Origin: an uncultured bacterium
Lineage (GTDB): Bacteria; Muiribacteriota; Ozemobacteria; Ozemobacterales; Ozemobacteraceae
Assembly: GCA_964554555.1 (NCBI GenBank)
Contig: CAZKPI010000003.1
Location: 1-35,277, forward strand
DNA: 35,277 nucleotides
Direction of reading: 5' to 3'
The notes below the pieces were generated by a model. The model saw nothing but the letters and a program-made list of their open reading frames with translations, ran no database searches and was not told where the DNA came from. Numbering within the stretch: position 1 is the stretch's first letter; each line of letters opens with the position of its first letter. The translations under genes were made by a program, and so were the position numbers. Below, piece after piece: positions 3,181 through 23,158 of this stretch.

Positions 3181-5043
3181 ATGAGCCGTCCCCAATCCAC
3201 CATCCGCGAACTCAAACACCGGGCCGCCCGCATCCGGTATCTGTCGATGAAGAGCACGGCGCAGGCCGGCTCGGGACACCCGACCTCCTGCAACTCCGCG
3301 GCCGATCTGCTGGCCACCCTTTTCTTCCAGGTGATGAGGTATGACCCCCAGCACCCCGAATCCTCCGCCAACGACCGGCTGGTCCTTTCGAAGGGCCATG
3401 CCGCCCCCGCCCTCTACGCGGCATGGTGCGAAGCCGGGTACCTGAGCGAGGAACAGGTCTTGACCCTCCGCAAGATGAATTCCCCGATCGAGGGGCATCC
3501 CATGCCCTATCTCCCCTTCGTTGACGTGGCCACCGGCTCCCTTGGCCAGGGCCTGTCGGTGGGCATCGGCATCGCCCTGCACCAGGTCCGGGTCATGAAA
3601 AACGACGCCCGAACCTTCGTCCTCATGGGTGACGGGGAGATGGCGGAAGGCTCGGTCTGGGAGGCCTTCGCTCTTGCCTCCCACCTCGGATTGGGGAACC
3701 TGGTGGCGGTCGTCGATGTGAACCGCCTCGGCCAGAGCCGTGAGACCATGCACGGACATGATCTCCGTGCCTACGCCCGCAAGGTCGAGGCCTTCGGCTG
3801 GGAGGCCCTGGTCTGCAACGGCCACGATTTCGACGAATTGCTGACCACCTTCCAGCGTGCCCTGAAGGTGAAAGGGAAACCCGCCTGTATCCTGGCCAAG
3901 ACGTTCAAAGGGCACGGGGTTTCGCTGTTCGCCGATCTCGACAACTGGCACGGCAAACCCCTCAAGGTCGGTGCCGAACTCGACAAGGCCCTCGAGGAGA
4001 TCACCCCCGATCTCATGAAATCTCCTCCCAAGCCGTCAATTCCCCGGCCCGAACCCGTCAAGGCTCCCGCCGTGTCCGGCGAAGGTCCCGCCGCCTGCCC
4101 GCCGGCCCCCTATCAACCCGGGACCAAGGTGGCCACCCGCCAGGCCGTTGGCGATGGTCTCCTCGCTCTGGGGGCGGCCGATCCGCGCATCTGGGTGATC
4201 GACGGTGATACCCAGAACTCCACCTACAGCCAGAAATTCGCCGACCGCTACCCCGACCGGTTCATCGAGTGCTTCATCGCCGAGCAGAACATGGCCGGCA
4301 TTGCCGCCGGCCTGGCGGCCCGGGGGATGATCCCGTTCGCCGTCACCTTCGGCGCCTTCCTGGCGCGGGCATACGACCAGATCCGCATGAGCGCCCTTTC
4401 CGGCCTGAAGGTGAAGTTCCTCGGGACCCACGCCGGCATCTCCATCGGGGAGGACGGTCCGTCCCAGATGGCGCTCGAGGACCTGGCCTTCTTCCGGACC
4501 CTCCCCAACGGTGCCGTCTTGTACCCCTCCGATGCTGTCTCCGCCTATGGGTGCATCCTGACCCTGGCCGGGCATCCCGGTCCCGGGTACGTCCGCCTGT
4601 CACGCCCGGCCTCTCCTCTCCTCTACCCCAATACCGAAGCATTCCCCCTCGGGGATCTGAAGGTCCTCCACGCTGGAAAAGCGCCCAAGCTGACGGTCAT
4701 CACCGCCGGGGTGGTGGTCCATGAAGTCCTCAAGGCGGTCAAGGAACTGGAAAACCCCCACCAGGTGCAGGTTCTTGACCTCTATTGTCTGAAGCCCTTC
4801 CCCTCGGAAAAGGTGATCGAGGCGGTCGGAGTGACCGGCGGCCGGGTGGCGGTGTTCGAGGAGCATTCTCCCTGCGGCGGTCTGGGTGAAGCCGTGGCGG
4901 GGGCGTTGGCCGGAAAGATCCGGGAATGGTCCCACGTCGCGGTCGACCGGGTGCCGCGCTCCGGAACCCCCGAGGAACTTCTCGAGTCGTTCGGCCTGTC
5001 GGCCAAGGCGATCCGGGAGAAACTCATCCACCTGCTCGCCTGA
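3181..5043 (+). CDS. tkt: transketolase (single-chain, about 620 aa)
   Basis: 620-aa ORF. The N-terminal TPP-binding region reads AGSGHPTSCNSAADLLATLFF, SKGHAAPALYA and GSLGQGLSVGIG...GDGEMAEGSVWEA. Pyrimidine-binding and C-terminal domains follow. SD GGAGGAG precedes the ATG. Confidence 0.93.
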   Translation: MSRPQSTIRELKHRAARIRYLSMKSTAQAGSGHPTSCNSAADLLATLFFQVMRYDPQHPESSANDRLVLSKGHAAPALYAAWCEAGYLSEEQVLTLRKMNSPIEGHPMPYLPFVDVATGSLGQGLSVGIGIALHQVRVMKNDARTFVLMGDGEMAEGSVWEAFALASHLGLGNLVAVVDVNRLGQSRETMHGHDLRAYARKVEAFGWEALVCNGHDFDELLTTFQRALKVKGKPACILAKTFKGHGVSLFADLDNWHGKPLKVGAELDKALEEITPDLMKSPPKPSIPRPEPVKAPAVSGEGPAACPPAPYQPGTKVATRQAVGDGLLALGAADPRIWVIDGDTQNSTYSQKFADRYPDRFIECFIAEQNMAGIAAGLAARGMIPFAVTFGAFLARAYDQIRMSALSGLKVKFLGTHAGISIGEDGPSQMALEDLAFFRTLPNGAVLYPSDAVSAYGCILTLAGHPGPGYVRLSRPASPLLYPNTEAFPLGDLKVLHAGKAPKLTVITAGVVVHEVLKAVKELENPHQVQVLDLYCLKPFPSEKVIEAVGVTGGRVAVFEEHSPCGGLGEAVAGALAGKIREWSHVAVDRVPRSGTPEELLESFGLSAKAIREKLIHLLA

Positions 5044-5060
5044 CCTGAATCATCCCAATC

Positions 5061-5094
5061 GCGGGGGCGCCACCAGTGCCTCCGCGTTTTTTTT
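5061..5094 (+). terminator. intrinsic terminator after tkt
   Basis: 8-bp stem GCGGGGGC/GCCTCCGC (one G.U pair) followed by eight T residues (5087-5094), 18 nt after the tkt stop. Confidence 0.8.
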
Positions 5095-5197
5095 CGGCCA
5101 TTTTTCAGATGTGCCTGGATCTCTGAGGATTGTACTCCTGACGGGAAGGTTGGGATTTGTCTGTCGTTGTCCGTTGGCGTCCAGCGGGAAACCCTTC

Positions 5198-5283
5198 AGG
5201 AAACCGAGTTCCGCGCCGACAATGACCATGGATTTGTTTGCCTCCTTAATTTCGGGCCGGGTACCCCCCGGCTCACTTTTTTT
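5198..5283 (+). ncRNA. unit A of a tandem structured RNA-like repeat ending in an intrinsic terminator (family not recognised)
   Basis: Conserved blocks: AGGAAACCG (5198-5206), CGCGCCGACAA (5212-5222) and TGGATTTGTTTGCCTCCTTA (5229-5248). These are followed by hairpin GGGCCGGG/CCCGGCTC (5254-5274) and a T7 run (5277-5283). G.U pairs exist only in the + strand reading. Confidence 0.55.
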
Positions 5284-5310
5284 CTCCGGACATTCTGTCC
5301 CGGCCCATTA

Positions 5311-5392
5311 AGGAAACCGCCCCTCGCGCCGACAAAGGGCGTGGATTTGTTTGCCTCCTTACTTTGGGCCGGGTACCCCCGGCCCGCTTTTT
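5311..5392 (+). ncRNA. unit B of the same tandem repeat, 113 nt downstream of unit A
   Basis: The same three blocks occur at 5311-5319, 5325-5335 and 5342-5361, followed by a perfect hairpin GGGCCGGG/CCCGGCCC (5366-5385) and a T5 run (5388-5392). By hand alignment it is about 80% identical to unit A. The differences are concentrated in two short segments that stay complementary. Confidence 0.55.
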
Positions 5393-5442
5393 GTACGGCC
5401 TTCCGGTCGCCTTGCGGGCCAAAGTGTGCTACCATGCCCCCC

Positions 5443-6102
5443 ATGTACATCATTGGCATCTCGGGCCTTTCCGGTTCCGGCAAAAGCAGTGTTTCCAAGG
5501 CGATCCTGGAGTATTTCCCGGGTCAGGCCAGCGTCCTCGAGCATGACATGTATTACTACGCCAAGAAGGACCGGCCGCCCATCAAGAACTACGACCATCC
5601 CGACGCCCTGGAAACCTCACTGTTGATCAAGCATATCAACGAACTGAAGAGCGGCCGGCCGATCGAGCGCCCCATCTACGATTTCAAGACCTCTGACCGC
5701 CTGGCCGAGACGGTCCGTCTGGAGCCCCGGCCGGTTTTGGTCATCGAAGGCCTGCTGATCTTCTGCATCCCGGAGCTGATGCCCCTTTTCGACCTGCGCA
5801 TCTACATCGACGTCCCTCTCGATCAGGCGATCATCCGTCGCATCAAGCGCGATCACATCGAACGCGGCCGCACGGTCCAGAGCATCATCCAGCAGTATGA
5901 AAGCACCGTCCGCGACGCCGCGATCAATCTCGTCCTGCCGTCACGGTACCTCGCCGACCTCATCATCCCCCAGGGGTCGAACAATCATGTGGCCCTGGAA
6001 GTGCTGTTCGGCCGCATCCGGGACCTGCTGGCCTCGGGGGGAAAATCCGGCGGAATGATCAAGACCCGCCGCCGCGGATCCGCCGCCTTGCCGGCGATCT
6101 AG
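5443..6102 (+). CDS. udk: uridine kinase
   Basis: MYIIGISGLSGSGKSS P-loop at the N-terminus, with uridine/cytidine kinase-like motifs (NYDHPDALE, PIYDF, VIEGLL, DVPLDQAIIRRIKRD). An alternative ATG at 5434 would add MPP. The 5167 TTG extension is Pro/Arg-rich and overlaps the RNA repeats. Confidence 0.88.
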   Translation: MYIIGISGLSGSGKSSVSKAILEYFPGQASVLEHDMYYYAKKDRPPIKNYDHPDALETSLLIKHINELKSGRPIERPIYDFKTSDRLAETVRLEPRPVLVIEGLLIFCIPELMPLFDLRIYIDVPLDQAIIRRIKRDHIERGRTVQSIIQQYESTVRDAAINLVLPSRYLADLIIPQGSNNHVALEVLFGRIRDLLASGGKSGGMIKTRRRGSAALPAI

Positions 6103-22992: not shown

Positions 22993-23065
22993 CGCCCCCA
23001 ATGGGATTCGAACCCATGCCGCAGCCTTGAAAGGGCTGTGTCCTAGGCCGCTAGACGATGGGGGC
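22993..23065 (-). tRNA. tRNA-Glu (anticodon UUC)
   Basis: The reverse complement GCCCCCATCGTCTAGCGGCCTAGGACACAGCCCTTTCAAGGCTGCGGCATGGGTTCGAATCCCATTGGGGGCG folds as a cloverleaf. Anticodon loop is CUUUCAA and the T-loop is GGTTCGAATCC. CCA is not encoded. Confidence 0.95.
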
Positions 23066-23085
23066 ATGTTGCCTTGGTTCAGGTT

Positions 23086-23158
23086 TGGGCCCAGCAGGGA
23101 TCGAACCTGCGACCAGCCGGTTATGAGCCGGCAGCTCTAACCACTGAGCTATAGGCCC
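23086..23158 (-). tRNA. tRNA with anticodon CAU (Met by anticodon; acceptor stem suggests possible tRNA-Ile2)
   Basis: The reverse complement GGGCCTATAGCTCAGTGGTTAGAGCTGCCGGCTCATAACCGGCTGGTCGCAGGTTCGATCCCTGCTGGGCCCA gives a 73-nt cloverleaf with anticodon loop CUCAUAA. It is not initiator-like: pair 1:72 is G-C and the anticodon stem lacks a GGG/CCC run. Confidence 0.9.

Follow-up and report, generated by a model that had tools for sequence, protein, structure and literature searches.

What is encoded by the two repeated, terminator-ended units that lie between the genes tkt and udk in an uncultured bacterium of the Ozemobacteraceae? The stretch of DNA analysed, called the window throughout, comprises positions 1 to 35,277 of contig CAZKPI010000003.1 (assembly GCA_964554555.1), and its tkt-udk intergenic region holds two units on the + strand, A and B, that are spaced 113 nucleotides (nt) apart and are 76% identical over a 76-nt direct repeat. 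Each unit is 85 nt long and ends in a terminator, and both contain the blocks AGGAAACCG and CGCGCCGACAA (the latter starting at 5212 in unit A and at 5325 in unit B) as well as the 20-mer TGGATTTGTTTGCCTCCTTA. This 20-mer occurs exactly twice in the window, both times on the + strand, and zero copies are expected in 100 shuffles of the window, even with three or fewer mismatches. Terminator-like sites in the window number 6, versus 1.2 expected. An earlier note on this DNA had described two units, 113 nt apart, that share three blocks; an exact-match scan and a direct-repeat search confirm this, as well as the hairpin and T-run into which each unit was said to run and the presence of three intrinsic terminators when that of tkt is counted (Table 1).

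The same note offered two interpretations, tandem riboswitches or attenuators on the one hand, and duplicated small RNAs (sRNAs) with a seed that binds Shine-Dalgarno (SD) sequences on the other. The latter fits the terminator on the + strand, the near-invariant, predicted-unpaired region that contains CCUCCUUA, and the many copies in unrelated contexts. In our assessment the units are probably adjacent paralogous genes for a trans-acting sRNA of about 85 nt, which belongs to a Riflebacteria family and would pair with the ribosome-binding sites (RBSs) of messenger RNAs (mRNAs).

A riflebacterial family of terminator-ended units

Relatives of the units were sought in genomes and in metagenomes. 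A scan of one genome per species with the pattern CCGACAA-N3-10-GGATTTGTTTGCC returned 31 loci, eight of which contain 12 true relatives that belong to Riflebacteria/Ozemobacter metagenome-assembled genomes (MAGs), two bins and one contig binned as Methanolobus. All 12 have a 7-nt gap, then TCCTTA, which lies outside the pattern, and then a sequence-variable hairpin with a T-run; the remaining matches are scattered, fall in coding regions and occur at about the chance rate. The metagenome scan used the 18-mer GGATTTGTTTGCCTCCTT and gave at least 120 stretches, and the family counts built on it are lower bounds. The earlier note had considered that the element might occur only in this genome; this is not so, as more than 100 homologues are found in Riflebacteria MAGs and in anaerobic-digester and sludge metagenomes, all of which have (U)GGAUUUGUUUGCCUCCUUA, 3-7 nt and a variable terminator hairpin. 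The AT-rich member L091 adjoins a udk gene whose product is identical to a protein named 'Candidatus Riflebacteria bacterium', and the family reads as riflebacterial wherever an assignment is possible. Its members span genomes with a guanine-plus-cytosine (GC) content of 30-60%. The Methanolobus-binned contig (L004, JAVEPM010000227.1) has the same layout of extracytoplasmic function (ECF) sigma, anti-sigma and sRNA genes as L022 (HGW-Riflebacteria-2), together with a near-identical sRNA, and is therefore probably mis-binned.

Two or three copies, separated by 0.7-6 kb, are present on several contigs, and a search of 618 kb of family loci with a covariance model of the family, R1, found no extra copy with a degraded seed. 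Most family members are single copies and not tandem. Only four genomes, all of them high-GC Ozemobacteraceae (the window, L009, L012 and L029), have A and B head to tail, at a spacing of 113-124 nt, and each unit is orthologous across all four; the pair is thus not a local duplication that lacks conservation in relatives, another possibility that had been raised. Some short contigs (L048, L052, L077, L135 and L021:7052-7069) start or end within the seed, an expected place for an assembly to break at an exact multi-copy repeat. In L058:19-105, a long, near-perfect palindromic hairpin lies about 90 nt upstream of the sRNA and gives spurious sub-threshold matches to microRNA families on both strands.

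Conservation of the seed

Positions are numbered from the first G of GGATTTG, and the family alignment, free of gaps between -36 and +19, comprises at least 87 distinct sequences. Invariant or nearly invariant in this alignment are T-35, A-33, A-32, A-29, A-28, C-23, A-22, CGA (-13 to -11), G-6, A-2, T-1 and the block GGATTTGTTTGCCTCCTTA, after which comes a T-rich spacer, and the window's own blocks shrink accordingly when the whole family is considered, CGCGCCGACAA to YCGAMA and AGGAAACCG to TTAA(A/G)(C/G)AAAC. Among the matches listed from genome and metagenome loci, a terminator-like hairpin with a T-run follows 124 of 140 exact seeds, and 110 of those matches additionally have CGA at -13 to -11.

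Several observations bear on whether this core is selected. Position A+18, which the search did not force, is present in 87 of 87 aligned sequences. Between paralogues on the same contig, 0 of 209 seed positions differ versus 106 of 396 positions (27%) of the 5′ domain. Ten loci were, moreover, fetched via the udk protein alone, so that the seed was not required: seven keep the tkt-udk synteny, and three of these seven contain the sRNA, with the exact seed in L158 and L164 and a single A-to-U change (GGUUUUG) in L160, while the other four have a short tkt-udk spacer without it. The unforced fixed positions, the contrast between paralogues and the udk-fetched loci therefore indicate that the core is under very strong selection. 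It is nevertheless not absolutely invariant. The L160 sequence (3864-3956, + strand), GGUUUUGUUUGCCUCCUUA, in which the A at +2 has become U, is the only seed variant among the canonical members listed, and GGA is therefore less critical than UUUGUUUGCCUCCUUA. The seed is predicted to be mostly unpaired (unpaired probability 0.55-0.84).

Two sequences outside the canonical set resemble the seed. A 5.2-Mb relative, L003, lacks the element between tkt and udk but has a sRNA-like UUUUUUGCCUCCUCCC (UUUUUUGCCUCCUCCCUUU) with a terminator downstream of udk (3852-3913, - strand), which may be a diverged family member; its motif CCUCCUCCC resembles CcsR. A Lachnospiraceae gene for glutamine synthetase type III (L019:6993-7022, + strand) contains GCCGACAAGCATGGATTTGTTTGCCTCCTT, encoding LADKHGFVCLL, and shares GCCGACAA(G)CATGGATTTGTTTGCCTCCTT with the Ozemobacter units, an identity that extends 8-9 nt beyond the search pattern; read in the frame of L019, the Ozemobacter sRNA units give AD(N/K)xHGFVCLL. 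Given the many genes for this enzyme and their synonymous codings, the likeness may be a coincidence.

Terminator helix and 5′ domain

The two halves of the unit differ in how their structure is conserved. In the terminator helix, 91% of cells are paired across the family, both sides have changed at four pairs, and a T-run is present in all members. The helix has many G·U pairs, position 63-90 being one in 55 sequences, which is possible on the + strand only, and the + strand is therefore the RNA strand. The earlier note had placed such strand-specific G·U pairs in the terminator and in an internal stem of the 5′ domain; the observation stands for the terminator, whereas the internal stem is not kept in the family.

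The 5′ domain appears to be poorly structured, and what is conserved is primary sequence, namely the seed, the CGA and the upstream block. The folding energy of the domain is no better than that of shuffles (mean z -0.2). Even in its best register (-26 to -17 with -9 to 0), the proposed internal stem pairs in 62% of cells, the RNAalifold consensus of the family does not predict it, and a mutual-information scan of the family alignment found no base-pair-like covariation, the top pairs not being Watson-Crick. In L009, the closest relative by comparison (its udk is 96% identical), unit A differs from that of the window at 5 of 12 positions of the 5′ arm and at none of the 3′ arm. The stem differences between A and B, which had been taken for compensatory changes, are thus present in the sequence but are not evidence of a conserved structure, and the variable segments, when compared across the family, do not co-vary. 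Two additional pairings proposed in the earlier note fare no better. Most members carry AACAA in place of the AGGA that was to pair with UCCU in an enclosing helix, and in 65% of members the GACAA loop that was to form a pseudoknot with UUGUU reads GAAAA, so that the pseudoknot loses its central pair.

Gene context and phage-like copies

If the units acted on udk in cis, they would be expected to keep its company. Among the matches listed, the 194 flanking proteins fall into 94 neighbour clusters, 51 of 98 upstream genes are divergent and 47 co-oriented, and 66 of 96 downstream genes are co-oriented (median distance 106 nt) and 30 convergent; in L004 and L010, a convergent gene directly follows the terminator. 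Recurrent neighbours include tkt (upstream), udk (downstream), an LplA-like ligase, an M42 peptidase, an SH3 protein, an HD/YfbR-like hydrolase, a STAS protein and a flavodoxin. The arrangement of the window, tkt-sRNA-udk, was seen about ten times, and the downstream genes as a group are functionally unrelated (udk, M42 peptidase, HD/YfbR-like, MnmA-like, ABC ATPase, flavodoxin). The diverse neighbours and the convergent downstream genes therefore argue for a free-standing sRNA gene and not for a leader or riboswitch of udk, and the element, judged by this distribution, is a multi-copy free-standing sRNA gene.

Eight of the exact-seed matches listed have a different 5′ part. Copies of this kind are found in phage-like contigs, where L059:6260-6366(-) and L050:9948-10044(-) belong to a module with a Holliday-junction resolvase, an SbcCD-like nuclease and a DNA methyltransferase, L063:4345-4428(-) adjoins primase and clamp-like genes, L149 (about 1470-1560, - strand) adjoins a tail sheath gene and L120:1711-1790(-) adjoins a tail-fibre assembly gene. 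In all five, 5′ hairpins that are unrelated precede the identical seed of 18-22 nt and a terminator; the portable functional unit is therefore the seed with the terminator, which would be transcribed independently. The RNA of L059 follows a textbook TTGACA-17-TAAAAT promoter and consists of a clean 5′ hairpin, the seed and the terminator. IMG/VR, cultured phages and plasmids yielded no true family member.

The upstream block

Conservation extends upstream of the sRNA units. Throughout the family, G/T peaks at 10-nt intervals (G-81, -71, -61 and -51, plus -67) form TTGTYTGT repeats that are followed by an A-rich stretch, and T-35 is found in 93% and A-29/A-28 in 94-96% of members. This TGT-repeat architecture is common to single copies and A units, spans -91 to -50 in the family, and is represented in the window by the repeats TTTGTCTGTCGTTGTCC at 5156-5172. 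In many members, CGTAC is present near -110 as well. The block at 5130-5203 of the window is 93% identical to its counterpart in L009, versus 58% for the next 12 nt and 63% for the inter-unit spacer, and conservation falls at about -27. In L009 itself, tkt and unit A are about 300 nt further apart (L009:2024-2493, - strand), and the added sequence holds CCCTTCGCCCCTTC-type repeats and two more hairpin/T-run sites.

The block looks like a promoter with phased sites for a regulator, arranged as in an operator array of the response-regulator type. A -35 element is possible at -63 to -58 (TTGTYT; TTGTCC in the window, 5167-5172) and a -10 element at -40 to -35 (WATnST; AACCCT in the window, 5190-5195), and transcripts would start at the conserved A-28, which corresponds to about 5202 for unit A and about 5315 for unit B. 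The remark in the earlier note that neither unit has a convincing promoter holds as far as consensus scanning goes, but has to be qualified by the existence of this conserved block. Unit B is without a TGT array of its own because the terminator of unit A occupies that space, where the -35 element would be, and the probable source of the unit B RNA is read-through of terminator A or a weak overlapping promoter.

Proposed mechanism and alternative explanations

The predicted RNA would have three parts, a short and loosely structured 5′ domain in which nothing but a loop-like YCGAMA is strongly conserved, a near-invariant, single-stranded (U)GGAUUUGUUUGCCUCCUUA(UUUUU), and a Rho-independent terminator. 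In the complement of the conserved stretch, AAAAAUAAGGAGGCAAACAAAUCCAU, what reads as an A/U-rich leader and a full SD is followed by an A-rich spacer and by the beginning of a start codon. The stretch is, in other words, the exact complement of an idealised RBS (A/U-rich - UAAGGAGG - CAAACAAAUCC - AU), which makes pairing with the SD, the spacer and the start region of one or more mRNAs its most likely role. In the mechanism proposed, unit A would be transcribed from a regulator-dependent promoter with phased TGT repeats, the sRNA would pair in trans with one or more mRNAs over their SD, spacer and start region, and pairing at the target site would block 30S binding and so translation; the start regions of the targets would carry the complement UAAGGAGGCAAACAAAUCC. 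Family membership, strand, the conservation of the terminator, that of the seed amid fast-evolving flanks and the independence from neighbouring genes are shown by the sequences, and we infer transcription, 5′ ends, regulator and target pairing from features of the DNA. CU-rich sRNAs such as mmgR, CcsR, AbcR, LhrC and RoxS are known to occlude ribosome-binding sites.

A number of points weigh against this reading. The existence of the transcript is itself a prediction, and a consensus scan as well as inspection by eye found no sigma-70 or sigma-54 promoter in the window. In a target search of the window, the best non-self duplex (-24.5 kcal/mol) did not outdo those of shuffled seeds (-26 to -27), and in about 1145 start regions from related loci (about 1 Mb) no target recurred or rose above the shuffled-seed background. 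The invariance of the seed in the metagenome set was partly imposed by the exact-match search. The near-invariant region, at 19-20 nt, is longer than most sRNA seeds, which could mean that its partner is a protein or an RNA other than an mRNA, and the 66 of 96 downstream genes that are co-oriented make some cis effect of the terminator on their expression possible. As for exact complements of the seed, these are just 11-12-mers, most of which fall within the TGT-rich arrays upstream of other copies. A bolder version of the proposal would regard the 19-20-nt block as a phylum-wide 'master' element, anti-RBS or like the 16S ribosomal RNA (rRNA) tail, that Riflebacteria deploy from several regulated loci to throttle the translation of conserved targets and that their phages have repeatedly captured onto unrelated hairpins so as to take over this switch; this we hold to be rather doubtful.

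The length of the invariant stretch also invites the idea that the RNA is a protein-binding RNA or a decoy, which would mimic the 3′ tail of 16S rRNA (GGAU..CCUCCUUA) to titrate a factor, or would sponge an RNA-binding protein or another sRNA. Near-invariance over 19-20 nt in genomes of 30-60% GC exceeds the usual length of a seed, phage-like contigs keep the stretch in otherwise unrelated RNAs, and the target searches, in the window and in the roughly 1145 start regions, came back empty. The conserved stretch resembles the 3′ end of Escherichia coli 16S rRNA, GGAUCACCUCCUUA. This likeness is, however, limited to GGAU and the anti-SD octamer, with a linker of 7 nt versus 2 nt, each RNA has a single motif, unlike the repeated motifs of sponges, and no candidate partner protein is conserved nearby; a protein-binding or decoy role is held to be unlikely. 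Less likely again are tandem cis attenuators or riboswitches, in which an aptamer and a terminator would control read-through into udk from tkt or from a promoter of their own. In favour of this, udk and the two units point the same way, a terminator closes each unit, co-oriented genes prevail downstream in the family, and the tkt-sRNA-udk context recurs. Against this stand the convergent downstream genes in 30 of 96 cases, the lack of functional relation among downstream genes, the phage versions between unrelated genes, and the udk genes of 4 of 7 syntenic relatives, which are without the element. The 5′ domain, with 62% stem pairing, a z of -0.2 and no covariation, has no conserved sensor fold, and neither minimum-free-energy nor consensus folds contain an antiterminator alternative, in a search that was not exhaustive. 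The riboswitch or attenuator half of the earlier interpretation is accordingly not retained.

A further explanation places the function on the minus strand, where a hairpin followed by a strong RBS (UAAGGAGG-N11-AUG) would drive a small open reading frame (ORF), such as that of 59 codons at 5229-5050, which might specify a type I toxin. Unit A does read AAGGAGGCAAACAAAUCCAUG and then an open 59-codon frame on this strand, the minus strand of unit B folds stably (z = -4.1), and a weak L31-leader-like match (L31-Coriobacteria; 24.3 bits versus a cut-off of 33) covers the hairpin and AAGGAG on this strand. Yet neither start codon nor frame is conserved. The start position is AUA in 51%, AUG in 30%, AUC in 15% and AUU in 4% of members and ACG in unit B, a stop closes the frame after 7-8 codons in L012, in L029 and in the family consensus, frames in general range from 7 to 59 codons and are unrelated, and the 59-residue product has no Pfam match. 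The conserved T-run and G·U pairs, for their part, make sense on the + strand only. The minus-strand ORF was therefore rejected, and a function of this strand is exceedingly improbable. Hardly more credible is that the units are a dispersed DNA repeat without RNA function, of the kind of repetitive extragenic palindromic (REP) elements, miniature inverted-repeat transposable elements (MITEs) or a mobile terminator cassette. The element is multi-copy, with up to three copies per contig, its presence at the tkt-udk site varies among relatives, and assemblies often break within the exact repeat. The units show neither terminal inverted repeats nor target-site duplications, however, the sole inverted repeat of each unit being its terminator, the phased upstream block is conserved, and units A and B are orthologous across the four Ozemobacteraceae genomes. 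Copies in one genome differ in 27% of the 5′ domain and in the entire terminator sequence with the 19-nt core untouched, and divergent flanks around an untouched core indicate selection and not recent transposition.

Features of the locus

The coordinates of the two units and of their neighbours are given in Table 1. Because a separate terminator serves tkt, unit A is not just the 3′ end of that gene. The product of udk is 97% identical to one metagenomic protein and 69-79% identical to Candidatus Riflebacteria, Rifleibacteriota and Ozemobacteraceae proteins. On the + strand, a micro-ORF, AUG-GAU-UUG-UUU-GCC-UCC-UUA (MDLFASL), was considered and rejected, as it has no properly spaced SD and its frame, which stays open through the terminator, is shifted by indels that follow UUA; its AUG is common in the family (A-2 80%, U-1 91%). 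Elsewhere in the window, two adjacent transfer RNA genes (22993-23158, - strand) are the sole matches to Rfam at gathering level.

Table 1. Coordinates of the two predicted sRNA genes, their parts and neighbouring features in the window.
Feature	Position	Strand	Basis
Transketolase gene (tkt), upstream neighbour, outside the element	3181..5043	+	Pfam Transketolase_N, Transket_pyr, Transketolase_C
ORF of 59 codons, rejected as a gene	5050..5229	-	Follows AAGGAGG, the complement of the seed; no Pfam match
Intrinsic terminator of tkt	5060..5094 (hairpin 5060-5086)	+	11-pair stem, then T8
Upstream block of unit A, promoter-/operator-like	5130..5203	+	Conservation with L009; family-wide phased G/T
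Unit A, predicted sRNA gene (5′ domain, seed and terminator)	5195..5283	+	Model R1 match 5194-5282, 69.6 bits, E=2.8e-13
Unit A seed UGGAUUUGUUUGCCUCCUUA, putative anti-SD/anti-RBS	5229..5248	+	Exact 20-mer
Unit A terminator GGGCCGGG/CCCGGCUC, one G·U pair, T7 at 5277-5283	5254..5283 (hairpin 5254-5274)	+	
Unit B, second, paralogous predicted sRNA gene	5308..5392	+	Model R1 match 5307-5393, 70.6 bits, E=1.6e-13
Unit B seed, same as unit A seed	5342..5361	+	Exact 20-mer
Unit B intrinsic terminator	5365..5392 (hairpin 5365-5386)	+	9-pair stem, then T5
Uridine kinase gene (udk), downstream neighbour	5443..6102	+	Pfam PRK, 2.5e-33

Relation to known RNA families

The suggestion in the earlier note that the units belong to no known RNA family was borne out by a covariance search of Rfam 15 (4227 models), in which neither unit, nor any of the canonical AT-rich members, matched a family at the gathering threshold. 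In a permissive scan of 5000-5500, the best matches were to suhB/mmgR, at 20.4 and 17.9 bits versus a cut-off of 41, and the sub-threshold resemblances of the sRNA units are all to anti-SD sRNAs. The searchable literature contains no paper that links Riflebacteria with sRNAs and none that describes the seed as a bacterial RNA. Among regulatory RNA families, this one would be the first candidate from Riflebacteria, an uncultured phylum that is abundant in anaerobic digesters and the subsurface; it is large (more than 100 copies) and has a sharply defined core, and a covariance model for it is available. The occurrence of the same core in phage-like contigs provides a natural experiment on seed mimicry. 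No new regulatory principle is involved, as anti-SD sRNAs and tandem sibling sRNAs are well known.

The closest known parallel by score is mmgR/suhB (alpha-r8, RF00519) of Alphaproteobacteria, the best sub-threshold Rfam match for both units, which is likewise a short sRNA with a CU-rich anti-SD motif (UUUCCUCCCU) a few nt before a Rho-independent terminator. Only the motif and the terminator geometry align, and phylum and 5′ domain differ, as does the extended seed found here, GGAUUUGUUUG. Predicted anti-SD pairing also relates the family to RsaE/RoxS and to the toxic sRNA of Betaproteobacteria (RF02278), to which canonical members score about 24 bits versus a cut-off of 50. The seeds of those RNAs are short (CCCC or CCUCC) and repeated, whereas here there is a single 19-20-nt block. 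Phage and prophage sRNAs whose seeds match or oppose those of host sRNAs, such as DicF and AgvB, find a counterpart in the phage-like contigs (L059, L050, L063, L149 and L120) that carry the host-family seed in an RNA with a predicted promoter of its own; AgvB is an anti-sRNA sponge, whereas the phage RNA has the polarity of the host seed and would act as a mimic.

In its gene arrangement, the locus resembles the sibling sRNAs CcsR1-4 (RF02791, Rhodobacter), AbcR1/2, PrrF1/2, OmrA/B and LhrC1-5, which are likewise encoded by homologous genes placed head to tail in one intergenic region. Sibling sRNAs each have their own terminator and a common C/U-rich seed that targets SD regions. The window has the same composition of a tandem sibling cluster, with homologous genes side by side, a terminator each and a common seed. 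There is no sequence or model similarity to these families, the match to CcsR1 scoring 12.8 bits versus 65.3 and falling on the tkt terminator; the motif lies in hairpin loops there and in a linear stretch of about 25 nt here, and the tandem state of the present family is specific to Ozemobacteraceae. The units thus represent a new RNA family of a known kind, the anti-SD sibling sRNAs, that stands outside the curated families.

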